This document shows positions 11,466 to 64,000 of a stretch of DNA of 64,000 nucleotides, piece after piece. Numbering within the stretch: position 1 is the stretch's first letter; every line of letters begins with the position of its first letter. The stretch is taken from positions 1 through 64,000 of the IMG/VR virus record IMGVR_UViG_3300025141_000046; one strand, 5' to 3'. The position numbers and the translations under genes are program-made. The notes under the pieces were generated by a model. It ran no database searches. It was not told where the DNA came from and worked only from the letters and a program-made list of their open reading frames with translations. The stretch comes from a virus.

Positions 11466-14400
11466 TTAAACACTGTCAAAATTACCTGCGTTAGCAACAG
11501 TAAAATCAAGTGCAATAAACTCTGCTGTCCGAGTGGGCTGCAGATAAATCTTTCCTCTAATTGTGTTATTTTCAATGTCCGCTTGTGTGGTTGTGGTTGT
11601 ATCAATAATAACCTTGTACCTATCAACTCCGCCATTGTCCTGAATTGTCTGCATGATTGGCTTAACTAGTGCATTAAATCTATCAAGCGTTTCCTGCCTG
11701 TTGGGCTCAAAGAGTAGTGAATTAGCAATATTCTTAACTTTTCGTCTGATATCAATCAATAGTCTTCTAACATTGATTCTATCTAGTGCAGATGCATTTG
11801 CCATCAGCGTTTTTTGACCCCAGACAACCGGGTCCTGTCCGACAAACTCAACAAGAGGATTAATTCTCTCTTCATACAGTTTATCTAAGTCATCCCTTTC
11901 AAGGGGAAGTGTGCATGCACTAATGCTAGCGTCTAGCCTTGCTCTTGAAAAACCTGCAGGTGCGTTAAAAGGTTGACCGTAGTAATCATTTCTTGACATT
12001 GCTCCCATGACTGCGACGCTTGGAGGAGCAACTTGCTCTCCTGACCCGTAGCCTATATCAATTACGACATCTGGATAATAAGCAGCTGCAAAAGAGCTAT
12101 CGAGACCCCTAGCAGCAAATCCTGCAGCAGTGTATGTTACACTTGGAATTATTACAGAGCCATCAGCTGCCACTGACCCAGTCATGACAACATTATTCTG
12201 GCTTCTCTGCTCAATATCCATGATATACAAAGCATCAAATCTATTTTCGACTGTACTCATAGCATAGTCAGTAACACTTGAGTGTCTAATTCCCGGGATT
12301 GTTAGCAATTTTACGTCAACGTCTGCTTTGACGCCCATGAGATCAAGTGCCTTTCTATATGTTGCAACTGTTGGTCCAGATACACCGCCTTGATTAATAG
12401 AGTCATCCATCTCTCTCTTGCAAGCTGTCGATGTAAAATCAGCCTTGTCGATGTCGAAAATGTCTGTACCGTCGAATCCCCCTTGCATATAGACTGAATA
12501 TTTTGCGAATGTTCTGTTTCCTGACGTCCTAAGATCATTCACATTCAATGCTCTCATTCCAAAACCTGGTGTAATTGAACCTTTTCGAATGTATGATGCG
12601 CTATGCCAGAAATCTGGATCTGCAATGTCGCCACTAGACCCTGTCTTGATTCTGATTCTCTCTAGCGTGAATATATTATTGTTGAATGCGTCGCAATCTA
12701 AAACCGTACCATTAACTGCTGCAGTGCCTGGATTATCTCCAACAGAGAAGTTGAATGCTCCGGGAGAGAAAGATGGGAAGAACTTTGTTTTTGTCACCAG
12801 CGAAAGGTCTTGACCGCCGCCATTTAGGCTTCGAAGCTTAGTTGATCCATAGGGATCTGTAATTAGAACATTTGCAACTCTCATTTCAAATTGAACACCC
12901 CAAAATAAGTTTGCGTTAGCTAGAATATCTGAAGAATCCCCGGGCGTGCCACGTTTGACATCGTCTCTATACCTTATTGGCGGTTCAGTGATCTCCTTAT
13001 ACGGGGTGGTGGGTACCAGGGCTGCGCCTGACTCTAGGTCTGCGAGAGGTCCGCTACCAGATGTTACAAGGTGATCCGGTCCTCTGAATCCCATGGGGAG
13101 TGCATCGTCAGGAACATTTCCCAACTCTAGCGCTTTTGGAATTTCAACTCTAATGAGTGAGGAGTTTCCAGGAAAGTTTCCTTCAACAACAAGCTTCTGG
13201 CTTCCAGCTGCCTGGTCAAAATCGAAGAATACTTGCTGGTCACCAATAACTCTTCCAATATATTTGTCACTGCCCAGATCTAAATTACACCCAAGGTGAC
13301 CCTCGAGAACTGCTGGAGAATCATCTGTATCATCAAATTCTCTTACAAGAACATCAAAAGTTCCAAACTTATCAGTTGCTGTTGCATTAGCAGGTGAAAT
13401 ATTTACAATAGAGATCTTATACTTTGATGACGGTATTGCACCGTCACCGCGAGCTTTGATTCTAAATAAGTTGTACTTAGTACCTCCAAAATCTTGAGAT
13501 ATAAAGTGAGGTGTTTTTGCTGCAGTAAATCTTTCCTGGAATGATTCGTAGTTAGGAGATACCCCAGCTGTATATGTGTCTCTTGCTTGAGAACCCGTTG
13601 TGATAAATCCGACATCCTCGAGCCTCGAATCTCCGGTGCCCTCTACATCAGCATGGAGAACAACACCGCTACCCGTAATTATAGCAAACCCTGGCGCTAG
13701 ATCATACCAGCTATATAGACAATGACCTTTTTTCTGAAGGAGTGTGGGGTCCTTATTGAGCTTCGTTGGAAAATACATCCCTGAATTTGAATCAAATGAT
13801 GCTGTAATTACATTACTGTTTCCACCATTTGGAATGTGACCGTTAAGAAGCAGTACGAACTCACCATCATGGACCTTGACAGATCCGCTCATCCCACCTT
13901 TCACTGATGCTGCACCCGGGATGGCCTCGTCTGTAACACTGGGTGCATTGGAATTTACTGCATGTGAACATGACAACTGAGGAATGACACCAGAAGGTGC
14001 CATCAATACACCTCTTAAAATAGGGGCAGAGCGGTTTTCTCCAACTATCTGAATATTAGCATCTGAAAATACAGTACTGCCAGCTGACTCTGACATGAAG
14101 CATCCCATGAAATATGTTCTACCTGGTGGAGCGTACGGGTGGGCCAAGCCCACTGCACTGGGATTTGCACCCACAATGCCATCATTTTGAACTAAGTTTG
14201 ATCCAACAGCAAATCCAGCCCGAGTTACCTTTCCAGTTGATGTGCTGCGCTGGTTTCCATCACCAACACCCAATACTCTAAGGTATGTTAGTGCTGTCGC
14301 ATTTCTTAAAAATGTATAAACAGCCATGGGACCGTAGATATCAGGCGGTGTTCTCCCTAGTGTTGCTGCATCAAATTGTGGTGCACCAAAGACGGCTGTA

Positions 14401-14561
14401 TAATCACTAAACGTCCCAAGTGTAATTGGGACAAATGCTGGGCCGTCCGTTGCGACACCTATCACCCCTGCAGGGACACCCATTGGGCCTGTTAGCGTAG
14501 GCTGTGATAGATCCGTCTCGGTGGAAAAAACTCCAGCGCTTTTGTAAACTTTTTCTGACAT
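11466..14561 (-). CDS. gp18: Tail sheath protein, paralogue 2
   Basis: N-terminal SAGVFSTETDLS...GPAFVP; C-terminal APAGFSRA, LYEERINP, VWGQKTL, ALDRINVRRLL, LFEPN, YLQPTRTAEFIALDF. Confidence 0.95.
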   Translation of the reverse strand: MSEKVYKSAGVFSTETDLSQPTLTGPMGVPAGVIGVATDGPAFVPITLGTFSDYTAVFGAPQFDAATLGRTPPDIYGPMAVYTFLRNATALTYLRVLGVGDGNQRSTSTGKVTRAGFAVGSNLVQNDGIVGANPSAVGLAHPYAPPGRTYFMGCFMSESAGSTVFSDANIQIVGENRSAPILRGVLMAPSGVIPQLSCSHAVNSNAPSVTDEAIPGAASVKGGMSGSVKVHDGEFVLLLNGHIPNGGNSNVITASFDSNSGMYFPTKLNKDPTLLQKKGHCLYSWYDLAPGFAIITGSGVVLHADVEGTGDSRLEDVGFITTGSQARDTYTAGVSPNYESFQERFTAAKTPHFISQDFGGTKYNLFRIKARGDGAIPSSKYKISIVNISPANATATDKFGTFDVLVREFDDTDDSPAVLEGHLGCNLDLGSDKYIGRVIGDQQVFFDFDQAAGSQKLVVEGNFPGNSSLIRVEIPKALELGNVPDDALPMGFRGPDHLVTSGSGPLADLESGAALVPTTPYKEITEPPIRYRDDVKRGTPGDSSDILANANLFWGVQFEMRVANVLITDPYGSTKLRSLNGGGQDLSLVTKTKFFPSFSPGAFNFSVGDNPGTAAVNGTVLDCDAFNNNIFTLERIRIKTGSSGDIADPDFWHSASYIRKGSITPGFGMRALNVNDLRTSGNRTFAKYSVYMQGGFDGTDIFDIDKADFTSTACKREMDDSINQGGVSGPTVATYRKALDLMGVKADVDVKLLTIPGIRHSSVTDYAMSTVENRFDALYIMDIEQRSQNNVVMTGSVAADGSVIIPSVTYTAAGFAARGLDSSFAAAYYPDVVIDIGYGSGEQVAPPSVAVMGAMSRNDYYGQPFNAPAGFSRARLDASISACTLPLERDDLDKLYEERINPLVEFVGQDPVVWGQKTLMANASALDRINVRRLLIDIRRKVKNIANSLLFEPNRQETLDRFNALVKPIMQTIQDNGGVDRYKVIIDTTTTTQADIENNTIRGKIYLQPTRTAEFIALDFTVANAGNFDSV

Positions 14562-14585
14562 CTAAATGAACTCCATTCTATAACT

Positions 14586-14592
14586 TAATTAT
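14586..14592 (-). promoter_or_regulatory. Putative late promoter ATAATTA (sheath 2)
   Basis: ATAnTTA in the 34-nt gap between the sheath genes. Confidence 0.55.
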
Positions 14593-14595
14593 CGT

Positions 14596-17500
14596 CTAAA
14601 CGAAATCTACACCTGCATTTGTGATGATAAAGTCAATTGCTATGAATTCAACAGCACGTGTTGGAACTATGACAATACGACCATTGAGAATATTGTTCTC
14701 AATATCAAGATCTGTATTGTTTGAAGAATCCATGACAATTCTAAATTGATCAATACCTTGTTGTGTCTGGATACTTGCCAGCAGCGGTGTAACCTCGGCG
14801 ACAAATCTTGCTCTTGTTGCTGGTGTATTTTGCTCAAAGACTAACTTCGTTGCCACATCACCAACAACTCTCTTGACCTCAAGCAACATCCTTCTAACAT
14901 TAACTCTATCTAGAGAGCTCCTTAGAGCCTGCAGCGTCTTCTGGCCAAAGATAACGTATCCTGCTCCTGGGAATGATGCGATTGGATTTATTCTATTTTC
15001 GTACAGGTTGTCTCTATTTTCCTGGTTAAGTCTAACATTCGTGTTTGTAACGAAACCTAATGATCCTCTATTGAATCCAGCAGGTGCGAACCACGGATAC
15101 GAAATACTATCTGTATATGCAAGTGCTCCAATAACTGCAACTGACGATGGAACGTCAACTGGCCTGTTATTAATATCATCAAATATTCTAACATCTGGGA
15201 AGTATGCACCGGCATAGTTGTTATCTATTCCTCGTCCTGCGAAGACCGATGCAGTTTTATCGACGCTAGGTCTATTGATGCTATCTCTAAACAATCTTGC
15301 CTGGTCCGCGTCGTAAGAAGGAACGTCAACTATGTAAAATCCCTTACCATAGCTTCCCAGTCTTAGCATTACATAATCTGTCAATGAAGAATCTCTAATT
15401 CCCGGTATGCAGACGATATTCACACGAGATGACACCTCAGATGTCAATATTCTCGCTGACGCTCTGTATGACTGAACTATTGCACTTTTGGCGCCGGCGC
15501 CAAAGTCATTTACTGTCGTATTTAAGCCAATATCCAGTGTTGCCCCGGATGCATATCCGCCTGTATCTGATGAAGATGACTTATCGTTCATCTTCACCAT
15601 GTTTGAATCAAGGATATTAACTCCGTCAAAGCCTCCGTAAATCATATTTGTGAACTTAGTGTAATCAACAAATTTGTTAAAGTACAGTGATGATGTAAGT
15701 GATGCTAGACTAGCAAATGTAAGTCTGTTATTGTACTCTGATCCATCTCTAATTGTATACAGTGCCGGATCCGGAGATCCATCTCTTATGTATGCTGCAT
15801 CAATAATATGATCAGCTGCTGATCCAGTTATCTGTGAAGTTACAGATCCAACAACATCACCCGTATATGATCCTGTTCCGTTATAGAATGCTACTCTTGC
15901 TAGTGTGAACTTGTTATTATTGAATTTATCAGCACCTGAGCCTGTTGTAAAGACGTCTAGCTTTTGTATTCCTAAAAGCTTAGCATACGAAGTTATAAGA
16001 GGGTTAGTAGTTGATCCCAGGTTTGATCTATAGATAGAATCTGTCCTTGTTGAGCTTGAGACTGCAAGGTGCTCAAATTTAACACCCCAGTACAGACTAG
16101 CATCGACAAGCTCTTCATCACCGCTCTGGCCGGTAAAATCTGGAGTTTTATCAAGAATTCCCCTTGTAACTTTAAATCTTAGCGGAACAGGGGGCACGAT
16201 TGATCCTGTCATAGATTTCGCGCCTCTACTTTGCCACAACAATGTGGCGGCTGCGACTGAGCCCGCGCCAGTACAGGCTGACATTCTTCTAGTATTTTGC
16301 GAAGGTACCGATACACCCTTTATTGCAGTACCGTCATCTGTTAGACAATCACTTGTCTTAATCGATGGTAACCCTCTGAATCCGAATGGAAGAGCTGTGA
16401 TAGGAACCTGACCGGCTTCTAGATCGCTGGAAGCAACAACTCTGACCCTGCTAGATTTATTGGGATACCTGCCAGTTACTACAACTCTCTTTTCACTGTC
16501 AATTTGTGCATCGAAGTTGTAAAATGCTTTCATATCACCGATCTTCTTTGCAACGTAGTCAGCACTTTTTGGATTTAAAGTACACCCTGTATATCTCTCA
16601 ATAACTGATATGCTTCTATCACTGTCTGAAAAATCTCGCACCTCAACAGTAAATGTACCATATGGGTCTTGTTCAGGGCTCAGAGGCATTCTGATATCCC
16701 TGATGGATATCTTGAACGATGTATTTGCGACTGCGCCATCAGAAATTGTCTCGATTCTAAACAAGTCGTATTCTTTATCACCGTATGGTTGTGAGATGAA
16801 GAATGTAGAGGTTGGTGTTTGAAATCTTGTATCAAATCTTCCGAATGCATTGTTGAAAGATACAGATGCTCCTAAGCCGCTAGTTGATGAACCTGCTGCT
16901 GAACCTGACATTAGACAGATTGATCCCGTAACCATGGCCCAGGACCTGGCCACAGATCCCCTATCTACCTCTGCCACCTCATTTTCAACTGCAAAGTCTC
17001 CGTAAAGCAAGTGCTGCTCTTTCTGAAAAAGTTGTGGATCAGTATTTAATATCTTTCCTATGTAAGCGTCATTAGCAGGATCTAGTGATGCCGTATATAT
17101 TCTAACTCCAGCAAAGCCATCTGCAGCTGCAAAACTTGATCCCGCTGTGGATGAAAGAACTAGCTTAAATAGACCTGCAGAGGAAGGCTTTGCAACATCA
17201 TTATTTGTTGCAAGTGTCTCTCCATAAGTTGCAGAAGCATATGTAAGCACTTGAAATCTTGATCCAGTAGGAGTCATAAGCACGCCTCTGACAAGATTTA
17301 CAGTTTGATCAGTAAGGGGCATTGAAGCATTGTCTGTAAAAATTGGATATCCCACAGCTTCAGCTCCAGATACATAGTGTCTTGCAGAGATAAACTGTAC
17401 GCAACCTAATTTTCTGCCTTTGTCATATGCTGGACCTTCTGTCCCTGCCGCTCCGTCGGCCCCTTGAATTACAAAACCTGCACTCTTGACAATTCCCGCA

Positions 17501-17805
17501 CCTTCAGTGAGAGTGATGTCTGTAGACGTTATGTTTGCTCCGGCACCTAAAACTCTGACATACGTCAGCGCTGATCGGTGCTTTAAAAACTCATTAACTG
17601 CATAAGGTCCAAACATGTCAGGATCTAGAGATCCAAACTTATTTTCAAACTCTAAAAATGATCCTACAGTTACCGGAACAAATGCTGGTCCCATTCTGGC
17701 AGTTCCTGCAACTCCAGCAGGTACTCCCGAGACCGACGTTTTTGACTGAGATAGATCTATCTCCCTCTCAAAAAACCCGGGTGATTTAAATGTCTGTTCA
17801 GCCAT
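14596..17805 (-). CDS. gp18: Tail sheath protein, paralogue 1
   Basis: N-terminal FKSPGFFEREIDLS...GPAFVP; C-terminal PWFAPAGFNRG, LYENRINPI, FGQKTL, LDRVNVRRML, PTRAVEFIAIDF. Confidence 0.95.
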   Translation of the reverse strand: MAEQTFKSPGFFEREIDLSQSKTSVSGVPAGVAGTARMGPAFVPVTVGSFLEFENKFGSLDPDMFGPYAVNEFLKHRSALTYVRVLGAGANITSTDITLTEGAGIVKSAGFVIQGADGAAGTEGPAYDKGRKLGCVQFISARHYVSGAEAVGYPIFTDNASMPLTDQTVNLVRGVLMTPTGSRFQVLTYASATYGETLATNNDVAKPSSAGLFKLVLSSTAGSSFAAADGFAGVRIYTASLDPANDAYIGKILNTDPQLFQKEQHLLYGDFAVENEVAEVDRGSVARSWAMVTGSICLMSGSAAGSSTSGLGASVSFNNAFGRFDTRFQTPTSTFFISQPYGDKEYDLFRIETISDGAVANTSFKISIRDIRMPLSPEQDPYGTFTVEVRDFSDSDRSISVIERYTGCTLNPKSADYVAKKIGDMKAFYNFDAQIDSEKRVVVTGRYPNKSSRVRVVASSDLEAGQVPITALPFGFRGLPSIKTSDCLTDDGTAIKGVSVPSQNTRRMSACTGAGSVAAATLLWQSRGAKSMTGSIVPPVPLRFKVTRGILDKTPDFTGQSGDEELVDASLYWGVKFEHLAVSSSTRTDSIYRSNLGSTTNPLITSYAKLLGIQKLDVFTTGSGADKFNNNKFTLARVAFYNGTGSYTGDVVGSVTSQITGSAADHIIDAAYIRDGSPDPALYTIRDGSEYNNRLTFASLASLTSSLYFNKFVDYTKFTNMIYGGFDGVNILDSNMVKMNDKSSSSDTGGYASGATLDIGLNTTVNDFGAGAKSAIVQSYRASARILTSEVSSRVNIVCIPGIRDSSLTDYVMLRLGSYGKGFYIVDVPSYDADQARLFRDSINRPSVDKTASVFAGRGIDNNYAGAYFPDVRIFDDINNRPVDVPSSVAVIGALAYTDSISYPWFAPAGFNRGSLGFVTNTNVRLNQENRDNLYENRINPIASFPGAGYVIFGQKTLQALRSSLDRVNVRRMLLEVKRVVGDVATKLVFEQNTPATRARFVAEVTPLLASIQTQQGIDQFRIVMDSSNNTDLDIENNILNGRIVIVPTRAVEFIAIDFIITNAGVDFV

Positions 17806-17866: not shown

Positions 17867-19069
17867 CTATTCAGATGTAGGTGAATCTAACGTTGTTTCT
17901 AATTCTTTTGAAATTCGTGAACTAGCTACGGTCTCACCTGCCCTTTCGTTCCTTATTATGATCTTAGATACCTTAATCGTATCAGTATTAGTAAAGGGGT
18001 TTGTAATTGTCTCAACGACTTTGGCGGAATCCTGCCCTCTTTTTAATTTTTCCATTCCCTGGGTCTCAATCTCAGATAGCGTAAACTTATTTTGATCCAC
18101 AACATCATCAGGATTCTTATCATCTGTAAAAACAAATCCGCTTGTTTGATTATATCCAAACTCAATTTGTGTAGCAGACTGATATTTTCTAAATGGTGAC
18201 GGGAGACCGTCTTTTTTTGATGAAAATAGATATCCTGGTACATCAATAGTAAAATTGTACTTTATAATTCTTTCATCTTTGGAAAAATCACTAAAATTAT
18301 CAGATGTAGATAGTGGTGACTTAATAAATGCAACGTATTCCATTCCCGACCTAGTTATCATTTGAAATCCTGTATCCTGGCCCGAAAATCTTGTTAGCAT
18401 GATCTCTATCATCTGGTTCATATTTTGAACATACTGCGTCCAAAATACAACCTCGTAAGAAATCATCATAAAAGTAGGATATGGTGCTGTGATAATTTCA
18501 AAAATATTATCTGTTAGGCTATTATCAAGAGTTGCGACTTGCGAATCAGATAGAAGAGATAGATTTTTTCCATTTCTTCTAGTTGTTAACGTACCAGGTT
18601 TTGCAACATTTCCTGGAAAAATATCTTTCTTGTCAAAGTTCTTTCTACTTGAAACGTTTTTCTGACTTTTTATTCCACCCCTGTTGATAATATTTTGATA
18701 ATTTCTGTCCTTGGGAGAGAGCCTCTTTTTAACAACATATAGCGGTTGATCTCTAAAAGCTATGGGTGTTCCGTACCCGCCCTGCCCAGGAGAAAGATCT
18801 ATGCTTTTTCGGTATATCGCTATTACGGGCAATATAATTGCATTATTTCTGTCTCTTATTGGAGAATTTCTCCTAGTCAGGGCGAATCTTTCACCGGTTG
18901 AGAAAACAACGGGAACTTTTGTTGACTGATCGTCTATCTTAACCTGGAGAGGTAATGTTTTATCGAATAAATCAAAAATGGCCCTATCAATATCCTCTAT
19001 TCCAGATGGCGGTAAGTCAAAATCTTCAGCTTCTGGCAAGTTATTTCTATCATCAAATACGTTAGACAA
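17867..19069 (-). CDS. Tail terminator / sheath stabiliser (gp15-like)
   Basis: IEDIDRAI, VPVVFSTGERF, ILPVIAIYR, YEVVFWTQYVQNMNQMIE, ERIIKYNFTIDVPGYL; between neck and sheath. Confidence 0.65.
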   Translation of the reverse strand: MSNVFDDRNNLPEAEDFDLPPSGIEDIDRAIFDLFDKTLPLQVKIDDQSTKVPVVFSTGERFALTRRNSPIRDRNNAIILPVIAIYRKSIDLSPGQGGYGTPIAFRDQPLYVVKKRLSPKDRNYQNIINRGGIKSQKNVSSRKNFDKKDIFPGNVAKPGTLTTRRNGKNLSLLSDSQVATLDNSLTDNIFEIITAPYPTFMMISYEVVFWTQYVQNMNQMIEIMLTRFSGQDTGFQMITRSGMEYVAFIKSPLSTSDNFSDFSKDERIIKYNFTIDVPGYLFSSKKDGLPSPFRKYQSATQIEFGYNQTSGFVFTDDKNPDDVVDQNKFTLSEIETQGMEKLKRGQDSAKVVETITNPFTNTDTIKVSKIIIRNERAGETVASSRISKELETTLDSPTSE

Positions 19070-19077
19070 ATTTCACC

Positions 19078-26244: not shown

Positions 26245-26248
26245 CTTA

Positions 26249-26854: not shown

Positions 26855-26856
26855 GA

Positions 26857-27102: not shown

Positions 27103-27118
27103 CGTATGCTCCTGTCAT

Positions 27119-27125: not shown

Positions 27126-27169
27126 ATCGGTAAAAGAATTGTTATCTCTAAAATTAGATAATGAAAAAA

Positions 27170-29056: not shown

Positions 29057-29059
29057 GAG

Positions 29060-49156: not shown

Positions 49157-49159
49157 CTG

Positions 49160-54474: not shown

Positions 54475-56853
54475 TTACTGCTGGGCAGTTGTCTTGACAA
54501 TTATAACATCATCAGGTACCAATTGGAAGGCGAACCTAAGAATGCCAGGATTTGCTGCAGACTGAACAATATAGTCACCATTTGAAGTCGAGGATCCGGA
54601 AGCCAGAAGCTGACCGTTAACAAAGACATCTGTATTTGCAACTGAAACCTCAACCAGGCTGATACCGTTCTCATCGTAACCCGTTCTATCAACAAGTGCT
54701 GCATCATTCAGCGTGAAGTTTGCGTTTGCAGCAATTGATGACGTAATTACAGCGAGACCTTTAACACCACCACTAGCAGCGCCAGCGAGTGCATTAAGTG
54801 CTCCAACGATTGTGGTGTTATCACTAAACAGAGCCTTTCCGATGAATGTTGTAAACTCACCACCATCAGCTAGCCTTATTTCATCACCTTGCATGTTACG
54901 TGAATCTGCACAACCAAAAGTGATGGCAGAACCAGACATTCCTACACCGATTGATCCAGACAGTCCGACTGAACCGAGTAATGATTGCAACTTAATTGCC
55001 TCTGTAGAATCTCCGCCTGTGTTAACAACGGAATACTTCTCCAGACCTGCGGTGGCTGAAGGTGCTATAACAACTTCGACACCACCAACCTTACCAAGTG
55101 ACACCCCTTTCTCATCTGGGACACTGATCTGGACACCACCGGCGACGGCGTTGAGCTTAATAGCATCGAGTCCAGTACCAGCAGTGTTGGTGAGAAGGAA
55201 CTTCTCACTAGCAGGAGTACCATGAGGTGATAATACCATCTCAACGGCACCAGATTTACCAAGTGCAAGTGTTTGTCCATCAGCCAGGATAGCACCCATT
55301 GTCATTGAACCAGCGGTTGAGTCAAGTGAGACTGCACCGGCTGCATCAAGGTCGAATGAAGTACCAGCATCAACATCAATACCGCCAGCAACTGCAGAGA
55401 GCAAAAGAGCATCCGCTGCAGTACCCGCAGTGTTGATAAGCTGCCACTTCTCATTAGCAGGAGTGCCATGAGGTGAGAATGTCATTTCAACAGCTCCAGC
55501 TTTACCAACTTTTACTGTTTGTCCATCCGCTAGGATAGCACCCATTGTTATTGAAGCAGCACTTGAATCAAGTGCAACAGCACCAGCTGCATCAAGGTCG
55601 AAACCGAGAGCAACATCGACATCAATACCACCAGCAGAAGCACCTAGCTTAATAGCATCGGCACCTGTACCAGCAGCTGTGACTATGACAGATGAATCAT
55701 TGCCACCAACCTGTGCGATGAGGAGGTCTTGTCCAGCACCACTAGAAGTAACAGTAAGGTTAGCAGAAGCACCTGCTGAATCGAGTGATACACCCACTGC
55801 ATCAATAGTAACCGCACCAGAAGCGTCGAGATCGAACGTAGATGAGTTAACGTCAAAAGCAACATCATTTGCTGTACCAATATTGATACCGCCGCCGCCA
55901 TCGAGCCATAGCGCTCCTGTGGAAACAGCAGAAAAATCGCCTGCGGCGTCGATGTCGACACCACCAGCAGAAGCTGTGATATCAATTGCATCAGTACCTG
56001 TACCAGCAGAGTCAAGCTGAAGCTTCTGAGCTCCACCGCCGGCAGCAGCAAGAACTAAGCTCTTGGCTGCAGCTGTAACAGTGAGGTTAGAATCGTCAGT
56101 TGCATCTAGTGATAGCGTAGAAGCATCCCATGAACCAGCAGCTGAATTAATATCAACGGCACCTGTCGTGGTAATATCAACTTCTGCAGCGTTACCAAGA
56201 ATCATGACGCCGTTGTGGCCATCAACGGTTGCAACACCTGCTGCTGCGTCTACAATGAGATTTCCAGCTGTTGTAGTTATGAGTGATGTTGCTCCGCCAG
56301 AGATATTGAAATCTGAAGTTGCATCCACGTCAAGCTTTGCAGTTGCGATCTCAACTTCCCCGTCAGCATCAAGGTCTAGCTGACCGTCTACAGATGAGAA
56401 GACCTTGATATTTGAATCTCTGAACTGAAGCTGTTGAGCGCCTGCGTGTCCAATACGAATATTGGCAGAACCAGTAAGCTGTAGAACGTTTTCACCGTCC
56501 TCGTCATACTCAATAGTAACATCCTGGTCATTACCGAACAGAATCTTTTTATCGTCAGCAATGTAGAAATCACCCCACTCAGCTGTGGCTGAACCGAGGT
56601 TTCGTGTACCCACACCGTCTGGAAGTAGATTCTGATAAAATGTACCAGCAGTAGCATTCGTGAAACCGCTTGCACCAACTCCATTTTTACCGGATAGGCG
56701 ACCAATTGCGCCGGCCATCTCGCCGAGAAGGCCTGCAAGATCTGTCTCTACAACTGCACCAGCATCCGCGGCTGCTGAAGTAGAACCAGAAAAAGCTACA
56801 TCTACAAGTGATCCTGTCACCTGAGGTAGCGTAATTTGTGAAAAATGTGCCAT
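54475..56853 (-). CDS. Repetitive fibre / beta-helix virion protein
   Basis: A/G/D-rich short beta repeats, RNLGSATAEW motif, internal duplication, C-terminal DVFVNGQLL domain; AAGGAG RBS. Confidence 0.7.
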   Translation of the reverse strand: MAHFSQITLPQVTGSLVDVAFSGSTSAAADAGAVVETDLAGLLGEMAGAIGRLSGKNGVGASGFTNATAGTFYQNLLPDGVGTRNLGSATAEWGDFYIADDKKILFGNDQDVTIEYDEDGENVLQLTGSANIRIGHAGAQQLQFRDSNIKVFSSVDGQLDLDADGEVEIATAKLDVDATSDFNISGGATSLITTTAGNLIVDAAAGVATVDGHNGVMILGNAAEVDITTTGAVDINSAAGSWDASTLSLDATDDSNLTVTAAAKSLVLAAAGGGAQKLQLDSAGTGTDAIDITASAGGVDIDAAGDFSAVSTGALWLDGGGGINIGTANDVAFDVNSSTFDLDASGAVTIDAVGVSLDSAGASANLTVTSSGAGQDLLIAQVGGNDSSVIVTAAGTGADAIKLGASAGGIDVDVALGFDLDAAGAVALDSSAASITMGAILADGQTVKVGKAGAVEMTFSPHGTPANEKWQLINTAGTAADALLLSAVAGGIDVDAGTSFDLDAAGAVSLDSTAGSMTMGAILADGQTLALGKSGAVEMVLSPHGTPASEKFLLTNTAGTGLDAIKLNAVAGGVQISVPDEKGVSLGKVGGVEVVIAPSATAGLEKYSVVNTGGDSTEAIKLQSLLGSVGLSGSIGVGMSGSAITFGCADSRNMQGDEIRLADGGEFTTFIGKALFSDNTTIVGALNALAGAASGGVKGLAVITSSIAANANFTLNDAALVDRTGYDENGISLVEVSVANTDVFVNGQLLASGSSTSNGDYIVQSAANPGILRFAFQLVPDDVIIVKTTAQQ
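55141..55632 (-). repeat. Tandem 246-nt (82 aa) internal duplication in the fibre gene
   Basis: Units start at 55632 and 55386 (GGIDVD...MGAILADGQT...SPHGTPA.EK...NTAGT..DA); a degenerate third starts at 55140. Confidence 0.85.
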
Positions 56854-57214: not shown

Positions 57215-59344
57215 TTAGATGCTAACAACAGTAGTTATAGCATCATCTGTAAGTAGGTCGAAATTAAAGTGGATGCTTCCAGTCTTTGCAGTATTTAGTA
57301 AATAATCTTTTAAAGATCCACTTAGCAGTAACTGCCCGTTTACAAATACATCTACCTTATTGAAATCATAGTTTACATTTGAAAAATTTGCTGATATGTC
57401 ACAGTCTTGTCCTGCACCTATTGGTGAGTTGATGATTCTGATAGATTTTACCCTTTCCTGATTCTTGAAGCCTATTGTAATGCTTCCGTTGGAAGCACTT
57501 GATATGTTTATACCGGCGCCTCCAATAAGATAACTAGAGCCGCCCTGGAGCCTTGTTAGAGAACCTGACAATCCATCGCTTGCGTGTATCGGCCCTTTAA
57601 AGTTGGATCCCCCGTCGGACCCAGTAAAAAATAATGTTCCCGGAGAGCTCAGTGTAATTGTTCTTTTTGTAAGCTCTGCTGATCCAGACATCTTAAGCTG
57701 GCCGCAGGCGCCATTGTGTAGATCAAATAGATCTATAATTCCAGTATAAGATCCAAGCTCTAAAGAGCTGCTAGCAAATACTTTTACTTTTCCTTTGAGA
57801 TTCTGAATTCTTGCAACATCACCCAGTTCTGGATTGATATCCAAAGATCCTGTCACAGCTAGTCCACCTGCCACCTTCAAGGGAGAGCCTCCATGAAGTG
57901 TTCCTGATATTACGACGTCACCACCAAATACTGAGGTGCCTCTTGTTGTAGTTCCTTTTGATCCAGCCGAACCTGATACGAAGAAAGCAATGTCGGAACA
58001 TTTTTCTGGTTGTATTGCTGCGCTGTGCATTCCAGAACCTGAAAGAAAAATCACTTGCCTTTTATTGCTATTGTAATAGTCTCCCATCCTCAAAATTTCT
58101 TCAACTGTTGAGCCATTAAACACGTTAAATACTAAATCGTTAGTATTACCTACATGAACAATAGAGGCTCCGGTGACGCCAGCTGCTCCAGCAAAATCCA
58201 AAGTCCCGTCTTCTGCTTGAGCCTCTCTTTGTATTCTAACTCCAGGGTCTGAATCTTTTATATGAAGTGTGGTTGCTGGTCCATTCAATCCAATTCCAAC
58301 TCTATTTGTATCACCCCTAATATATAGTGTGTTATCATCGCCGCTTGTCTTGACTTGGAAATCTACGTCGCCGCCATCGCCAATTATCACAGTATCTTGA
58401 CTGTGTTCTTTTAGTGTCAGCAATGTTTCATTTCCGGCAGAAAACGTTATTTGATCAGATTCAAATCTTAGAAAAGTGTCTGGATCGTTTTTGTGATAAA
58501 GATACTCACCTAGATGCATGTTGCCTGCAGCACCAAGCGAGCCTGTAATTCCTACGTTTCCAGAAAATTGAGAACCCGTCAGTGTCGCAACGACAGAATC
58601 CAATATATTCAGTGTGTAAGCATTGCCAGCACCAGCATCAACTGATGCTAAACCAATTCCCGGTGTAAAAACTCTTTCGTCAGAAAGTGATCCCGTTGCA
58701 GATAGAACAAGATATTCAGCATTTGGATCTCCTCCGCTGCCGCCGCCCGTGATCTTATCTTTTACAGATGCTCCAATATAGAGAAATGCGTCTACATATC
58801 TTGGATTCTGGTTGCTATCACCTGTTGCCGGTGGGTCCTGTTGGAAAAATATTCCATTAAAATAGTCAAGATTCCAATCTCTTGCATCTAAAACTGGTAT
58901 TTGAGTCTGTACATTACTGGCTGAATGATATGGAATTGATTCATAGTCCATAGAGAATGAAGTGGGAACAAGCTGTAGAGATCCACTTGTAATGTATATG
59001 ATCTGACTATTTAAAAAAGGATATGTACCTTTTTTTGAATTTGAAGAGTTTGCCTCATAGTCATCTGGTAGCTGTAATGAAAACCCATGTCTTCCGCTGG
59101 CTGTATCTGTACCTGGAATAAACGAAGCAGATAGCCTTAAATACTCGACAGCACCGCCAGTTGTAGCATATAGCGATGCCTTGCTCGGATTTGTAGGAAT
59201 TACATCACCAAATATAGTCTCTGATGATAATGTGAGGCCAGTTGGAAGACCTTCATTTGCAAGATCTTTATCATTAGAAGTTTGCGCTTTTCCACTTAAC
59301 TTCTTAATCGATATATTAATTTTAGTGGTATCTGAAAGTGCCAT
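57215..59344 (-). CDS. Tail fibre-like virion protein
   Basis: DWNLDYFNGIFFQ, DPNAEYLVL...LSDERVFTPG, RVGIG..GPATTLHI, C-terminal DVFVNGQLL domain. Confidence 0.65.
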   Translation of the reverse strand: MALSDTTKINISIKKLSGKAQTSNDKDLANEGLPTGLTLSSETIFGDVIPTNPSKASLYATTGGAVEYLRLSASFIPGTDTASGRHGFSLQLPDDYEANSSNSKKGTYPFLNSQIIYITSGSLQLVPTSFSMDYESIPYHSASNVQTQIPVLDARDWNLDYFNGIFFQQDPPATGDSNQNPRYVDAFLYIGASVKDKITGGGSGGDPNAEYLVLSATGSLSDERVFTPGIGLASVDAGAGNAYTLNILDSVVATLTGSQFSGNVGITGSLGAAGNMHLGEYLYHKNDPDTFLRFESDQITFSAGNETLLTLKEHSQDTVIIGDGGDVDFQVKTSGDDNTLYIRGDTNRVGIGLNGPATTLHIKDSDPGVRIQREAQAEDGTLDFAGAAGVTGASIVHVGNTNDLVFNVFNGSTVEEILRMGDYYNSNKRQVIFLSGSGMHSAAIQPEKCSDIAFFVSGSAGSKGTTTRGTSVFGGDVVISGTLHGGSPLKVAGGLAVTGSLDINPELGDVARIQNLKGKVKVFASSSLELGSYTGIIDLFDLHNGACGQLKMSGSAELTKRTITLSSPGTLFFTGSDGGSNFKGPIHASDGLSGSLTRLQGGSSYLIGGAGINISSASNGSITIGFKNQERVKSIRIINSPIGAGQDCDISANFSNVNYDFNKVDVFVNGQLLLSGSLKDYLLNTAKTGSIHFNFDLLTDDAITTVVSI

Positions 59345-59351: not shown

Positions 59352-61784
59352 TCACAGCCACGTTATAGAAACGGTGTTAACATTTCCAGTAAATGAAGCA
59401 TCTGCCTCTATTTTTAACATAATATACTCATTGGAGTCTACGAATACGGTTCCAAATGTTGCATCATTTGTTGCATTTAGCGTGCTATCTAAAGATCCAT
59501 TAAGGCAACCATCACCATCTCCTGTTTGCCCTGTTGAGAATGCAACTGCAAGATCCATCCAGCCAGTAGTCTGATTTCCTGATGTTGTAGGCAGCTTGGC
59601 AAGAACTGAAATATTTCCAGTTCCAAGGTTAGTTCCTTGTGAAACTATAGTTCCAGATCCATTAACTGAAAGTCTAAAATCTGTCTTTGCGCCGCCTGTA
59701 TTGTTTTGAAAATATCTATAAAATGTTCTCTTTCCAGAGCCTATATTGCTATAATTTACATTTTCATCAGGCCCGTTTGAAATTGACCCTCCGTCAGAAG
59801 TGTTTCTAAAATCTCCACTATTTGCCCCTTGCTGTGGCGCACGAAGTCTACTATTGTAAAACATAAGGCCGTCTTCATATCCAACATTTGTTCCGCTCAT
59901 GTGAACAGATGACACCCAGTCATTAGAATTGCTAGTAACGTCTGACTGTGAACCGTAACTTCCAGAAATTTTTCTATAGTTTTCTAATCTAAACGTCTCA
60001 GATGTCGACGTAGAAGTGTTTGATAAGTTATAAAGTAGTATTCCGCTTATCGACTCTGAGCCGCCACTTGAAATATTGGACTTGAGTGGGTGCGGAACAT
60101 TAACGCTTACAGATATAGAATTGTCTAAAATTGGGTCTGAATTTATTGTAGCTGAACCTGTTATGTGAAGAACTTTTTGCTCGTTTTCTCCGTTGCTATA
60201 ATCTATAACAGGGAGAGCCTGTGAGGAGACACTGCAATTAGTTCCATTAAATGTTATGTTATTTTGAGAATAAACATTTCTATATGCGTTTGTGACTCTA
60301 GCCCTGTACTCTGCAGTTCCTCCTGTATTGTATCTTACACCTGATAGTGTATTCATGCCTGTCATAGAAAGTGTATCTAGAGCTGAGCCAGCTGCTGCTA
60401 AGGTATTGTTATCACTATCATTTACCCATTCTACGTAATTGCATGTTGTGTCAACACCTGAGATTGTGTGAACTACTCTTAAATAGTTCCACCCGTTTCT
60501 TTGATCAGATGTTGCGACCGTATAGGTTCCTTGACGGTGCTGGAATGTGTCAAAATTGCTACCATTACTAAAATGACCGGGTGTGGTCACAGAAAGATTG
60601 AACCCAGAACCGTTTCCATTCACAGAATTTCCAGATCCAAATGAGCTGAGATCTACAGAATGAATCTCTGTCGAATTATTGTTCACAAAAAGCTTTAGAA
60701 TCCCCTGATTGCCATTTCCAAAAGAATCAGCTGCGTAATTCGGACTATCTGCCGGAACGTCTGCGTTAAGTGTACCATCTATTACTGTCGCTCCGGTAAA
60801 ACACGCAACGCGCACATCATTACTAACTGTTGTAGAGCTATAGCTTCCATTAATATTAACGTCAGACAGGCTGGAGGCAGGTGATGAAAGAGTGGATGGC
60901 TGAGCATTTATATACCCTACGATCGACTGAGTCGATCCAAATGAAAGATTTGCATTGGCACCCGAATCATTACAGTCTATATCGTCTAGTGATGGTGCTG
61001 CTGCAGGAGCAAGACCCTTCAGCACCTCGTTGAATCTATCAATAGCTGTTCCAACTGGTGTCCCAGAAAAGAAATCAGTAAATAGACCGTCAGAATAAGA
61101 TCCGTCTTCTGCATTTCCTATTGATCCTGTTAGTGCTACTACACCTGCACCTTCATCACTCAGGATTGCCAAATTCGTTACATTAAGCTGCGTTACATTT
61201 CCAACATCAGTAGATCCAGATTTAACGTTAGACCCATTATCTGTAGAAGAAACAGTTATTTGACCAGCTGAACTTGATGATATTGTGACATTGTTTCCTG
61301 CAGCTATAAAAGAAGCACCGCTAGGCAGACGAGTTAGTGAAGCTGAAAGATTGGAAACCGTTAGTGTGTTTGTAGTCTTGTTGAATGTAAAATTAGCGTC
61401 GCCGCCGAATGCTGCGCTGTCATTAAACTGAACCTGTGTATTAGATCCGCCTGGATTTCCAGAACCTCCGCTTCCAAATGCGGTCCATTGCGGATTTAAT
61501 CCGACATTATTTTTAAATTCGAGAGTTCCATTATTATCTCTGAATCCATATCCAGATGTTCCAGGTGCAATTCCAAAATTTATGTAATCACTAGCAGAGA
61601 CAAGAAGGCTTCCTGAGACTGATACATTTCCGTAGACATGGAGTCCCTCTCTAAAGTACGGACTGTCAAGACCTACTTCTGTCCTATTTGGAAATTGTAT
61701 CGAATGAATATTACCCGTTCTGCTCTCTCTAGTGACTAATCTATCAGATTTTTTTAATATTTCATTTTTTACTTTGCTTCCCAT
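59352..61784 (-). CDS. Fibre/baseplate-associated virion protein
   Basis: PGGSNTQVQFND..AFGGDANFTF fibre motif; IG.AEDGSYSDGLF...AIDRFNEVLK.LAP; S/N/G/T-rich beta domains. Confidence 0.65.
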   Translation of the reverse strand: MGSKVKNEILKKSDRLVTRESRTGNIHSIQFPNRTEVGLDSPYFREGLHVYGNVSVSGSLLVSASDYINFGIAPGTSGYGFRDNNGTLEFKNNVGLNPQWTAFGSGGSGNPGGSNTQVQFNDSAAFGGDANFTFNKTTNTLTVSNLSASLTRLPSGASFIAAGNNVTISSSSAGQITVSSTDNGSNVKSGSTDVGNVTQLNVTNLAILSDEGAGVVALTGSIGNAEDGSYSDGLFTDFFSGTPVGTAIDRFNEVLKGLAPAAAPSLDDIDCNDSGANANLSFGSTQSIVGYINAQPSTLSSPASSLSDVNINGSYSSTTVSNDVRVACFTGATVIDGTLNADVPADSPNYAADSFGNGNQGILKLFVNNNSTEIHSVDLSSFGSGNSVNGNGSGFNLSVTTPGHFSNGSNFDTFQHRQGTYTVATSDQRNGWNYLRVVHTISGVDTTCNYVEWVNDSDNNTLAAAGSALDTLSMTGMNTLSGVRYNTGGTAEYRARVTNAYRNVYSQNNITFNGTNCSVSSQALPVIDYSNGENEQKVLHITGSATINSDPILDNSISVSVNVPHPLKSNISSGGSESISGILLYNLSNTSTSTSETFRLENYRKISGSYGSQSDVTSNSNDWVSSVHMSGTNVGYEDGLMFYNSRLRAPQQGANSGDFRNTSDGGSISNGPDENVNYSNIGSGKRTFYRYFQNNTGGAKTDFRLSVNGSGTIVSQGTNLGTGNISVLAKLPTTSGNQTTGWMDLAVAFSTGQTGDGDGCLNGSLDSTLNATNDATFGTVFVDSNEYIMLKIEADASFTGNVNTVSITWL

Positions 61785-61793: not shown

Positions 61794-64000
61794 TTATGGT
61801 CCCGGTGTCCAGGGACCAAAGAGCACAGGACCTGTCATGTATGGCGATATTGTTGGTTCTGGTCCAGTAGGCGGAGTCATTGTAGTACCGCTGGATCCGC
61901 CGCTGCCTGGAGTAAATGTTGCTCCTCCGTATGTAAAGCCAGACCCGATCAAGGCTGGTGATGCAGAGATTGCCGAGCTGGTTGAGCTGCTGGTGCTTGA
62001 TGTGAATGTCCCAGGCGCGGTCACGACGGGGATTCCTGGAACCATTGTAACGAGCTCACTACTCACGAGCAGCGGATCCGCTGAAGATCTGTCAGAATAC
62101 GGATATGAAGATGTATACTCAAAGCTAAAGTTAGCAGAATCTGTGGCAAACGGGCTTACTGTAGTTGAACCATTAAGGCTGCTTACAAATTTTACCTGAA
62201 TGGGTGATTCATCAATTGCTGCATTTCTCCCACCCGCTACTGATAGAAAGAACTTCCCATACGGTCTTTGCTCTAGCATATCTCTAATTTGTCCAAACCT
62301 GTCTCTTCTAAATTTTGCAACTGGTTTTGCAAGAACAGGGCTAATCATCCCATATCTTGGCCCGAAAGATCCCGTGATATTATATGAAAATTCGTTCATA
62401 TTAGTCGGTCCTATTTTTGCTCTATACGAAAATCCTCTGTTAAAGAGCGTAACATATGATAGTTTGCTATAATCTGTTGATAAAACTTCTTTCACCCTGG
62501 TTGATGAAAAAGATCCAGATGAGGGTATAAGCCTAAGATAGAAGTTTTGATGTGTGTATCTATCCGGGTTTCCCTTATATGGGTACGCTGTAACTCGGTG
62601 AAGATTTGCAACGTCTGCATAAATCCTGTGTGTAAATGTTCCAGATGAAATTTTCCAGGCTCTTATAAAGTTAGTCTGATCTCTCTCGGCAAAATCCACT
62701 ACATCGGGAGCCATGCTGTCGTAATATGTCTCGATCATATCTGGGAATGATACAAATCTCTGAAGTGAGACGATATTGCTAGCTCCCATCACAGCAGAGG
62801 TTTTCTTTGTAACGAAGTGTGGATCTCCCGCGAGCTCTTTTATATTTCTATTCCATATCACAAAGTCATTGTCATCATCTCCGATAAAGGACGCAGGTGA
62901 TCCGACTTTATTATCTGCTGTCGGGGATGAAATAACACTGGGATTTGTTGATGCTCCGTCGATACCTCTTCTATTTTTTGAGTGAAGTGAGACTACTGAA
63001 CGTGCTGTTCTAAACCCAGCATCTGTATTAATTCTATTAAATGATGGTTCTGCTAGCGGAACACTATTTGAAAAATTGAGCGCATTTTGTGAAACGTTAA
63101 GTTTACCATATACAAAATTATCAACATAAGATCCCGAGAGATCGAGCCTGCTGGCAATATCAAACTGATCTAGTACACGTCTTGTACCGATTGCCTCATG
63201 AATTGCATTTGATGTAAGTCCTTGATTTGTCGTAACCAGGACTTCGCTGTTTAGCTTGACCTGGCTACCAAAGAGAGTCAGACTCGCACTACCGGTCAAA
63301 ATCTTCATAAAGGATCCTGACATGCAACCTAGAATTTCCATAGGTGACAATGATCTGTAAAATCCAAGGTCACGGCCAGCATCTACGGGTGTTGCACGAC
63401 CAATATAATTAGTCATTGTCCCAGGTCCACCTCCAGCGAGGCCACTCGATGAGCATGGCAGCATAGATATGCCAGCATCGATGCCAAGTATTAACTCATC
63501 ACCTGGCTGAAAAAGGTATGGTGACACCTCAGACGAGGGTCTTGCACCAAAGAGAATTGGATAGGAAGGTGTGCCAGAGATACCCCAGTCGTGGCCAGTA
63601 TATCCTAGCATTCCTATGCTTGATAGATTGCTATTTATAGTCCCATCACTATCTTGAAGTGAGTGAAGGTCATCTCCGTCTATATTAAATTTGCCAGCGC
63701 CCAGATATGTCTTAAATTGTCTCGGGTCTCTCACAACACTGTCAGAGCCTACAGACTTCATAGTATCCCGTATGTAGGATGGAGCCTTATTGGATGATGT
63801 AAGCGCAAAGGGCACTAATCCCGCTGCGAGCTGGTCACCAGCGATGAACACATCTTCATTTGAAACAACTGTATTTATTGTACTATTGGCAGTCAAGCTT
63901 GAAGAAGGTATTTGATCACCGCCCTGCCACCAGTCCTGTGTTATTACTGATCTCTGCGTTGGATTCAAGAACCCAGTATTAGATGTTCCAGAGCCCTTAA
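61794..64000 (-). CDS. Large virion structural protein, 5'-truncated by the window edge
   Basis: Frame stays open beyond the listed 63968 start to the edge; SPYLFQPGDELILG and FRRDRFGQIRDMLEQR motifs; P/T/S-rich tail. Confidence 0.65.
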   Translation of the reverse strand, partial: KGSGTSNTGFLNPTQRSVITQDWWQGGDQIPSSSLTANSTINTVVSNEDVFIAGDQLAAGLVPFALTSSNKAPSYIRDTMKSVGSDSVVRDPRQFKTYLGAGKFNIDGDDLHSLQDSDGTINSNLSSIGMLGYTGHDWGISGTPSYPILFGARPSSEVSPYLFQPGDELILGIDAGISMLPCSSSGLAGGGPGTMTNYIGRATPVDAGRDLGFYRSLSPMEILGCMSGSFMKILTGSASLTLFGSQVKLNSEVLVTTNQGLTSNAIHEAIGTRRVLDQFDIASRLDLSGSYVDNFVYGKLNVSQNALNFSNSVPLAEPSFNRINTDAGFRTARSVVSLHSKNRRGIDGASTNPSVISSPTADNKVGSPASFIGDDDNDFVIWNRNIKELAGDPHFVTKKTSAVMGASNIVSLQRFVSFPDMIETYYDSMAPDVVDFAERDQTNFIRAWKISSGTFTHRIYADVANLHRVTAYPYKGNPDRYTHQNFYLRLIPSSGSFSSTRVKEVLSTDYSKLSYVTLFNRGFSYRAKIGPTNMNEFSYNITGSFGPRYGMISPVLAKPVAKFRRDRFGQIRDMLEQRPYGKFFLSVAGGRNAAIDESPIQVKFVSSLNGSTTVSPFATDSANFSFEYTSSYPYSDRSSADPLLVSSELVTMVPGIPVVTAPGTFTSSTSSSTSSAISASPALIGSGFTYGGATFTPGSGGSSGTTMTPPTGPEPTISPYMTGPVLFGPWTPGP

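Follow-up and report, generated by a model that had tools for sequence, protein, structure and literature searches.

The first 64,000 nucleotides of the 93,274-bp viral contig IMGVR_UViG_3300025141_000046 (the window; the phage is labelled G000) encode virion proteins of which the outer ones carry a short ordered motif, h-[S/T]-G-S-h, where h is a hydrophobic residue. We consider it about an even chance (probability near 0.5) that this motif is a sequon for phage-encoded, cytoplasmic protein O-glycosylation that coats the exterior of the virion. The enrichment of the motif, its specificity, its distribution, the lineage-specific constraint on it and the accompanying genes were all computed here; that those genes act on the motif, and that any residue at all is modified, is what we infer. 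An earlier, sequence-only reading of the window had proposed a broader tripeptide, [ST][GAS][ST], usually led by a hydrophobic residue, as a modification sequon on unrelated outer virion proteins.

All counts below are given as observed versus expected, the expectation being obtained by shuffling residues within each protein and, as a local control, inside 20-residue windows. Pooled over 34 proteins of G000, [ST][GAS][ST] occurs 204 versus 134 times (z 6.0, and z 5.1 with the local shuffle), so that the enrichment survives correction for composition, and the hand counts of the sequence-only reading agree with our recount to within about 3 per protein. As written, however, the tripeptide is too broad. 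Its Gly-centred form [ST]G[ST] is found 86 versus 41 times (z 7.1), whereas neither [ST]A[ST] (43 versus 36) nor [ST]S[ST] (75 versus 56) reaches significance with the local shuffle. The permuted controls G[ST][ST] and [ST][ST]G show no departure from expectation in G000, nor do permuted tripeptides in any of the genomes. The hydrophobic lead is real and is matched by a hydrophobic residue after the site: 57% of sites have one at position -1 and 53% at position +3. The form flanked on both sides, h[ST]G[ST]h, occurs 26 versus 4 times (z about 11). A scan of all 8,000 tripeptides in G000 places SGS and TGS first and second for over-representation. In the 13 outer virion proteins (outer set) [ST]GS is about fourfold enriched (76 versus 19.3, z 12.9), and in the 13 inner or non-surface proteins encoded at 3401-11416, 17867-19740 and 25576-36483 (inner set) [ST]G[ST] is seen 3 versus 9.9 times (P(<=3) = 0.011). 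The core common to the motif-rich genomes is [ST]-G-S; the original [GAS] class is partly vindicated as a description of tolerated variants, since the middle residue interchanges among G, A and S at homologous alignment columns. An obligatory Ser was considered because TGT is depleted in G000 (3-4 versus 8-9), and was dropped because TGT is not depleted in G003 (27 versus 14) or in the Flavobacterium phage immuto (32 versus 21).

Several simple origins for the motif can be set aside. The codon triplets at the sites are diverse, the commonest 9-mer occurring only 5 times among 115 sites, which indicates that selection acts on the protein and rules out a cause at the DNA level. The carriers belong to unrelated folds and are limited to outer virion proteins, as had been claimed, and the only homology among them is that between the two tail sheaths (33% identity) and in two short C-terminal stretches, which rules out paralogy or a common domain. 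Known sequons do not account for the sites either. The D-[ST]-[AILVMT] sequon of general O-glycosylation in Bacteroidota is not enriched in the outer set (41 versus 45.9); that pathway is periplasmic, and virions assemble in the cytoplasm. Nor is N-x-[ST] enriched in the outer set (130 versus 116.1, z 1.3). A proteoglycan-type context was not found, [DE][ST]G being depleted (8 versus 17) and SG.G occurring 6 versus 9.8 times, and Asp and Glu at positions -3 and -1 are depleted to 0.3x.

All substantial open reading frames (ORFs) of the window are on the minus strand, and the carriers among them are listed in Table 1. The fibre-like protein is the densest carrier inside the window; it has no Pfam or PHROG match, and its residues 435-616 contain one hhh-[ST]-G-[ST] site per coil of about 18-28 residues. 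Taken singly, the fibre, the 827-aa and 1511-aa LamG proteins and the 418-aa protein are strong carriers, and the [ST]G[ST] counts of both sheaths, the capsid protein, the neck protein and the 164-aa protein are only marginal (p 0.03-0.16). The Laminin_G_3 match of the 827-aa protein is slightly below the Pfam cut-off. The gene of the 1511-aa protein extends to position 66329 of the contig, and the whole protein has 15 versus 5.2 [ST]G[ST] and 8 versus 1.6 sites of the form with a hydrophobic lead (h-form). The [ST]G[ST] count of the 810-aa protein (8 versus 5.2) is not significant alone. In the two sheaths [ST][GAS][ST] is found 19 versus 9.3 and 11 versus 6.4 times. All seven sites of sheath paralogue 2 lie in an inserted region (residues 181-661) and none in the conserved C-terminal sheath core, and only one of the six sites of paralogue 1 aligns with a site of paralogue 2. 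The two sheath genes lie intact side by side at 11466-17805, and G003 and G007 also have two. In the capsid protein, which has 10 versus 5.5 [ST][GAS][ST], alignment with immuto and T4 gp23 places 7 of the 10 sites in the variable insertion at about residues 128-395, in line with the sequence-only reading, which had noted several sites there. The neck protein has 2 versus 0.2 h[ST]G[ST] and 4 versus 2.4 [ST][GAS][ST]. The 164-aa protein, which is possibly a decoration protein, has no family match in PHROG or Pfam. The excess continues past the window through the 1511-aa protein, a 1194-aa LamG protein and a 512-aa baseplate protein, p512 (8 versus 1.1), and ends at the enzymes encoded beyond 75 kb of the contig.

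The described near-absence of the motif from inner proteins is confirmed, with 2, 0 and 2 [ST][GAS][ST] in the proteins at 29060-31069, 31080-32717 and 33346-36483 and none in the tail tube, whose gene (10925-11416) lies just outside the range given in the sequence-only reading. The terminase and portal labels given earlier to proteins of this contrast set fit the gene order and the immuto orthologues. The scaffold (24035-25513), in contrast, had been described as a partial exception, and this exception vanishes with the Gly-centred motif (2 versus 0.7).

Table 1. Motif carriers, contrast proteins and sugar-transferring enzymes of the contig (counts are observed versus expected)
Feature	Position	Strand	Family match and motif counts
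Tail tube	10925-11416	minus	0 sites
Tail sheath paralogue 1, 1031 aa	11466-14561	minus	PHROG tail sheath E 2e-52; [ST]G[ST] 6 vs 2.4
Tail sheath paralogue 2, 1069 aa	14596-17805	minus	PHROG tail sheath E 1e-58; [ST]G[ST] 7 vs 2.9
gp13-like neck or adaptor, 395 aa, weak carrier	19745-20932	minus	PHROG head-tail adaptor Ad2 E 4e-11
164-aa protein adjoining capsid gene, weak carrier	21344-21838	minus	[ST][GAS][ST] 6 vs 2.3; [ST]G[ST] 2 vs 0.7
Major capsid protein, gp23 family, 663 aa	21996-23987	minus	Pfam Gp23 E 4e-77; [ST]G[ST] 5 vs 2.1; h-form 3 vs 0.7
Contrast set without motif, including putative terminase, portal and Mre11-Rad50 candidate	25576-36483	minus	
827-aa LamG-like protein	38470-40953	minus	[ST]G[ST] 8 vs 1.9 (p 0.0009); [ST][GAS][ST] 19 vs 7.6
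418-aa structural protein	40963-42219	minus	[ST]G[ST] 6 vs 1.5 (p 0.004); [ST][GAS][ST] 11 vs 5.0
792-aa Gly/Ala-rich tail or fibre protein	54475-56853	minus	h[ST]G[ST] 5 vs 0.9 (p 0.003); [ST]G[ST] 7 vs 3.2
709-aa fibre-like protein	57215-59344	minus	[ST]G[ST] 13 vs 3.2; h[ST]G[ST] 10 vs 1.0; [ST][GAS][ST] 19 vs 7.8
810-aa tail or fibre protein	59352-61784	minus	h[ST]G[ST] 6 vs 1.4 (p 0.003)
1511-aa LamG-domain tail protein, C-terminal part	61794-64000 in window	minus	Pfam Laminin_G_3 E 1.9e-13
GT4-a	contig 78687-79859		GT4 (PF00534/PF13692)
GT4-b	contig 79875-81143		GT4 (PF00534/PF13692)
PF03407 nucleotide-sugar transferase	contig 90954-91712		

Two other regions of the window stand apart from this pattern. 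Three large Ser-rich proteins (673, 1371 and 919 aa) are encoded at 43006-51919, the part of the window with the lowest GC content (35-38%); they have no family match, no G003 or G007 orthologue and no motif excess, and may be recently acquired or exchangeable receptor-binding proteins. Within the structural module, positions 36932-37894 encode a 320-aa protein with DnaG-primase-like domains, whose [ST]G[ST] count of 3 versus 0.4 is probably due to chance, given that about 60 proteins were tested.

G000 is an uncultured aquatic T4-like phage of the 'Far-T4' neighbourhood. Its contig carries genes for a gp23-family capsid protein with a large insertion, for two paralogous sheaths that each exceed 1,000 aa, for a gp13-like neck protein and for numerous large tail proteins that match no family. 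G000 is about 25% complete by CheckV, and relatives imply genomes near 300 kb; among the genomes compared, G003 is 273 kb and G007 is about 53% complete. By capsid, immuto (47%), Microcystis phage Mel-JY01 and Rhodothermus phage RM378 come nearest among cultured phages; RM378 was long the sole cultured Far-T4 member (PMC4360716).

The motif is not peculiar to G000. The structural region of G003 has 139 versus 74 sites, and its 149 other ORFs have 29 versus 31. About 40 orthologues of p512 have 4-12 sites each, against about 1.2 expected. In the ORFs of immuto beyond 60 kb SGS occurs 63 versus 18 times (z 10.4) and ranks first of the 8,000 tripeptides, as it does genome-wide; the immuto sheath (147026-149155) has 11 versus 2.6 sites and one immuto tail protein has 22 versus 2.7 of the h-form. 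A 1053-aa tail protein of immuto (97658-100819), a phage of Flavobacterium sp. LMO8, has 28 sites. [ST]GS is found 83 versus 24.7 times in Mel-JY01 and 42 versus 15.6 times in RM378, which also has 40 versus 13.5 h[ST]G[ST]. Non-tail regions are at expectation (immuto, 23 versus 25.4; Mel-JY01, 43 versus 37.6). LR756508 gives a weak signal. No excess was found in 28 structural proteins of T4 ([ST]G[ST] 21 versus 27, h-form 5 versus 8.2), in the jumbo phage XacN1 (108 versus 100.8, with SGS ranking 1,882nd) or in G008, and the motif is at expectation in G006, G007 and the clade of loci L094-L102. The hosts of the motif-rich phages span Bacteroidota to cyanobacteria. An apparent shift of the sequon to [ST]-G-T in L094-L102 (30 versus 16) was rejected, as it is mostly one site in GT4-a/GT4-b counted once per locus.

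The Mel-JY01 counts leave out one ORF with 112 sites (L175:635-3052, accession PP395634.1), which was considered as a 'poly-sequon' substrate beside a GT4-domain protein and rejected because it is a collagen-like Gly-X-Y repeat. It is an 805-aa plus-strand ORF of GTS/GSS triplets, where the record annotates a minus-strand coding sequence at 739-2298 instead, and it adjoins a 1227-aa protein that is annotated as an FkbM methyltransferase and also has a GT4-a-like domain.

In principle, the motif could be a structural habit of this lineage, h-[ST]-G-S-h being favoured at the starts and ends of beta strands and inherited with beta-sandwich, jelly-roll and solenoid domains, with loss by drift in one clade and the glycosyltransferases acting elsewhere. 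The setting of the sites is compatible with this explanation. A model of p512 (pLDDT, the predicted local distance difference test, 87) shows a jelly-roll like that of carbohydrate-binding modules (CBM) followed by Ig/FN3-like sandwiches, with the sites at strand starts, strand ends and loops. The hydrophobic flanks, the position of sites at strand edges or loops of all-beta domains and the recurrence of the fibre site once per coil of about 21 residues all fit a structural role, and certain sites, for instance the one at sheath residue 622, found in 24 of 28 orthologues including motif-poor ones, are clearly structural and universal. The motif-poor clade also retains the glycosyltransferase pair. 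On the other hand, the same folds occur in T4 (Hoc, gp18, gp34, gp37), in XacN1 and in G007 without the excess, there is no single secondary-structure context, and beta propensity would not prefer Gly-Ser to other small or polar residues, nor leave the permuted orders unenriched. The sites are dispersed and irregularly spaced in folded beta domains, and in the sheath model (pLDDT 72) none of the seven sites falls within the conserved C-terminal core. Orthologues that have lost a site retain hydrophobic residues at positions -1 and +3 but have polar or charged ones at 0 and +2, which suggests that both hydroxyls of the motif probably face the solvent.

The comparison of orthologues speaks more directly to this question. 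Between G000 and G003 (44% identity) 40% of the G000 sites are kept as motifs, versus 12% expected from the background retention of Ser/Thr and Gly. Between G000 and G007, at a similar distance (40% identity), 7% are kept versus 8% expected, and conservation is lower at residues of the motif (0.23) than on average (0.40). The sheath 2 site columns are likewise conserved in close orthologues and read RGK, RGN or KDY in the motif-poor clade. Since the G007 orthologues keep the fold with other residues at the site columns, which evolve faster than average, the fold does not need the motif. The positions also turn over while the density of sites is kept: the 28 aligned sheaths have sites in 32 distinct columns and the 46 p512 proteins in 45, and only 1 of the 11 sites of the immuto sheath is common to G000. 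In these alignments the constraint on the motif is present only in some lineages, as expected of a site that is read by a trans-acting factor. This agrees with the argument of the sequence-only reading that one structural turn would hardly explain the recurrence of the motif, lineage-limited constraint fitting the site of a trans-acting enzyme better, and we regard the structural habit as an unlikely explanation.

As to which enzyme might read the motif, the earlier statement that no modifying enzyme is encoded in the window holds for the window itself, but a pair of GT4-type glycosyltransferases (GTs) and a sugar cassette lie just beyond it on the same contig (Table 1). The pair is directly upstream of baseplate genes. 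GT4-b and GT4-a are adjacent in G000, G003, G007, immuto, Mel-JY01 and 64 viral contigs, and in those 64 contigs the block PD-(D/E)XK, GT4-b, GT4-a, small genes, p616 and p512 is rigidly conserved. The GT partner in RM378 was recognised by hhalign at 96.6% probability, and all five motif-rich genomes carry the block PD-(D/E)XK, GT4-b, GT4-a. The cassette at 82-93 kb encodes a sulfotransferase, two SDR epimerases/dehydratases, a UDP-sugar dehydrogenase, WbqC, a DegT aminotransferase, a hexapeptide acyltransferase, a formyltransferase, a methyltransferase and the PF03407 transferase. It belongs to a hypervariable glycan island that stretches from PIN-PhoH to PD-(D/E)XK (contig 82000-93274, L002:8000-19274; in loci L049-L112, the part upstream of the PD-(D/E)XK gene), whose gene sets differ among close relatives and draw on UDP-glucose dehydrogenase, SDR, DegT, WbqC, GT2, GT64/GT25, sulfotransferases and TylF-type methyltransferases. 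Many metagenomic contigs stop within 1-2 kb of it, in the manner of a metaviromic island.

The cassettes of G000, G003, immuto and Mel-JY01 encode no protein with predicted transmembrane segments by a hydropathy scan made without a dedicated predictor, and by the same scan they contain no membrane protein of an undecaprenyl-phosphate-type pathway (a membrane initiating transferase, flippase, polymerase or synthase). The transmembrane-free cassettes make a lipid-linked surface polysaccharide less likely and favour a soluble acceptor. Two small proteins with predicted transmembrane segments are encoded outside the cassette, in the clade-conserved block between the GT pair and the baseplate genes of L002: a 180-aa protein with three predicted transmembrane segments (75299-75841) and a 105-aa protein with an N-terminal transmembrane segment (78379-78696). 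Near the pair in other phages, the GT4-b orthologue of Mel-JY01 is split into adjacent ORFs of 190 and 302 aa (L156:6010-7501), which may reflect a frameshift, an error of sequencing or a true separation of its two Rossmann domains. In immuto, phage genes for GroES and GroEL are found a few kb upstream of the pair (L146:88-2030, NC_055915.1).

Our proposal is that the soluble GT4-type pair would be made late in infection together with the structural proteins, and that one or both enzymes would put the first sugar on the Ser/Thr hydroxyl of the motif, which would sit in loops or at the edges of beta strands and expose both of its hydroxyls. The variable, membrane-free cassette would then supply the nucleotide sugars and elongate or modify the glycan by means of its UDP-sugar dehydrogenase, SDR epimerases/dehydratases, DegT aminotransferase, acyl-, formyl-, methyl- and sulfo-transferases and additional GT2/GT-A enzymes. 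The outcome would be a lineage-specific glycan coat on the sheath insertions, the baseplate, the fibre proteins and the capsid insertion. An acidic, sulfated composition is possible, because UDP-glucose dehydrogenase is found in 35 loci and sulfotransferases are present as well. The best structural match of the N-terminal domain of p512 (contig 70791-72329; L001:9794-11329) is a chondroitin-sulfate-binding CBM (8wab, E 4.7e-6). Since the cassettes encode both UDP-glucose dehydrogenase and sulfotransferases, an acidic, sulfated glycan combined with a baseplate lectin for such glycans is conceivable on the basis of this model.

DNA is the other obvious acceptor for soluble phage GTs. The DNA of immuto, however, was found by liquid chromatography with ultraviolet and mass-spectrometric detection (LC-UV-MS) to contain only dA, dC, dT and fdPreQ1, with no glycosylated nucleoside reported (PMC10516641), and on this ground DNA is probably not the glycosylation acceptor in immuto.

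A number of observations weigh against assigning the motif to the GT pair. All motif-rich genomes have the pair and the outgroups without the pair lack the motif, so part of the expected co-occurrence is there, but it breaks down in an internal clade. G007 has apparently intact GT4-a and GT4-b in the same synteny and no motif on 133 kb (h[ST]G[ST] 21 versus 19.3), and the L094-L102 clade likewise keeps the pair without the motif, GT4-b in these motif-poor phages retaining 66 of 72 invariant columns; the pair is thus not sufficient for the motif. Motif status switches just once or twice along the GT4-b tree, which leaves the co-occurrence with little weight as statistical evidence. The expectation that a phage without a cassette would be without the motif failed in RM378, which has the GT pair but no cassette and no epimerase and was found to be motif-rich, so that the cassette is not required. 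The enzymes themselves are generic GT4s, nearest to BshA/MshA-type enzymes and chlorovirus B736L, the latter being among the sequence matches of GT4-b in the PDB (3oy2, E 4.5e-6), and no known protein-O-glycosyltransferase family includes them. A gene of the thymidylate-synthase family is present in G003 and G004, and DNA hypermodification could occur in some lineages such as these; in G003 this divergent gene (44 bits) lies beside a lone SDR epimerase at 187646-190044 (L140-L141), away from the glycan island, and might encode a pyrimidine hydroxymethylase. Finally, we found no literature report of glycosylated virions for immuto, Mel-JY01 or RM378.

Loss of D219 and H246 of GT4-a was considered as the cause of the motif-poor clade and was rejected, as G007 keeps both residues and the motif-rich L085 and RM378 lack H246. 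A screen of gene content in motif-rich versus motif-poor genomes yielded no gene, BLAST being insensitive at these distances (only 12 shared families).

These observations leave some room for a different trans-acting factor that reads the motif, for example a kinase, an acyl- or ADP-ribosyl-transferase or an assembly chaperone, supplied by the host or encoded elsewhere in the approximately 300-kb phage genome and lost or changed in G007 and L094-L102. The lineage-specific constraint and the restriction to virion proteins call for a trans-acting factor without naming one, the GT pair tracks the motif imperfectly, G000 and G007 are partial genomes, and a chaperone is at hand in the GroES/GroEL of immuto. 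No candidate enzyme came out of the low-sensitivity screen, however, and the GT pair is the only gene set common to the motif-rich genomes that makes chemical sense for a Ser/Thr hydroxyl. The range of hosts also argues against a host factor. We therefore think such a factor distinctly improbable. An artefact of composition, low complexity or repeat ancestry is hardly credible: the carriers are rich in Ser, Thr and Gly, one Mel-JY01 ORF is a collagen-like repeat and pooling orthologues across loci pseudo-replicates sites, but within-protein and local shuffles leave z values of 6-10, permuted tripeptides stay at expectation, paralogy is minimal, and the single-genome counts, with the collagen-like ORF left out, are free of orthologue pseudo-replication.

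Phage particles are generally regarded as unmodified protein, and to our knowledge the glycan at the C-termini of mycobacteriophage capsid and tail-tube subunits is the sole documented exception. Phage-encoded virion glycosylation is described there for Che8, Corndog and Myrna (Freeman et al. 2023, Cell Host Microbe, as cited in PMC12619734). There as in our proposal for G000, phage GTs are proposed to glycosylate structural proteins of the same phage in the cytoplasm, either ahead of assembly or in its course. Unlike those glycans, which are reported at C-termini, the candidate sites of G000 are an internal ordered tripeptide on more than ten outer proteins, with none in the tube and those of the capsid mostly in its insertion, and the phages are T4-like myoviruses of Bacteroidota and cyanobacteria that have their own nucleotide-sugar pathways. 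For large aquatic 'moraphages', four core glycosyltransferase families have been described and virion glycosylation was raised as a possibility (as given in PMC12619734).

Among bacterial systems, the GtfA/GtfB O-GlcNAc transferase of Gram-positive serine-rich-repeat adhesins and SdgA/SdgB resemble the proposed one in having two adjacent GT4-type proteins, in a cytoplasmic soluble reaction and in a small residue between acceptor serines (S-A-S or S-x-S there, S/T-G-S here). Membership of the phage GT4s in these families was rejected, as they score 17.7 and 15.2 bits with the GtfA model TIGR02918 (cut-off 574.6) and 16.3 bits with the SdgA model NF047880 (cut-off 800), and the acceptors here are dispersed in beta domains rather than in long Ser-rich or Ser-Asp repeats. 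The autotransporter heptosyltransferases (Aah/AIDA-I, TibC/TibA) also O-glycosylate many Ser/Thr residues in the cytoplasm, on a beta-helical passenger with a short inter-strand acceptor loop, to which the once-per-coil sites of the fibre may be compared. However, most carriers here are not solenoids, and no heptosyltransferase-like enzyme was seen, though none was searched for. We regard both systems as mechanistic analogies and not as families to which the phage enzymes belong. Giant viruses (the fibrils of Mimivirus; Vp54 and B736L of chloroviruses) have their own nucleotide-amino-sugar pathway (aminotransferase, acetyltransferase, dehydratases) and soluble GTs, but are viruses of eukaryotes, and we know of no [ST]-G-S sequon for their glycosylation. 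The DNA glycosylation of phages, such as that by the T4 alpha- and beta-glucosyltransferases, likewise employs soluble phage GTs on a cytoplasmic macromolecule (Pyle et al. 2024, as cited in PMC12619734), but would not explain a protein motif. Our literature searches found no paper describing this motif. New in the present analysis are the motif-poor clade as a counter-example, the test of constraint, the use of the immuto DNA data against DNA glycosylation and the recognition of three cultured motif-rich phages.

Somewhat less confidently than for the sequon as such, we suggest that this aquatic Far-T4 group with hosts in Bacteroidota and cyanobacteria may have an O-glycosylation system of its own, in which a sequon on more than ten unrelated outer proteins would be read by the GT4 pair, the hypervariable, O-antigen-like island would set the 'serotype' of a lineage, and the sequons would decay genome-wide where the system lapses, as in G007 and L094-L102. 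The proposal is directly testable, as the motif-rich immuto, Mel-JY01 and RM378 are in culture. If it is true, a simple sequence rule would predict glycosylated virion proteins from genomes, the large, fast-changing sugar-gene islands at which metagenome assemblies break would be explained, and a compact, soluble, sequon-directed O-glycosylation system would be available that glyco-engineering might exploit. In an abundant marine and freshwater phage group, a conserved sequon would mark the sheath, the baseplate, the fibres and the capsid, and the surface that these phages present to hosts, grazers, particles and antibodies would be carbohydrate.

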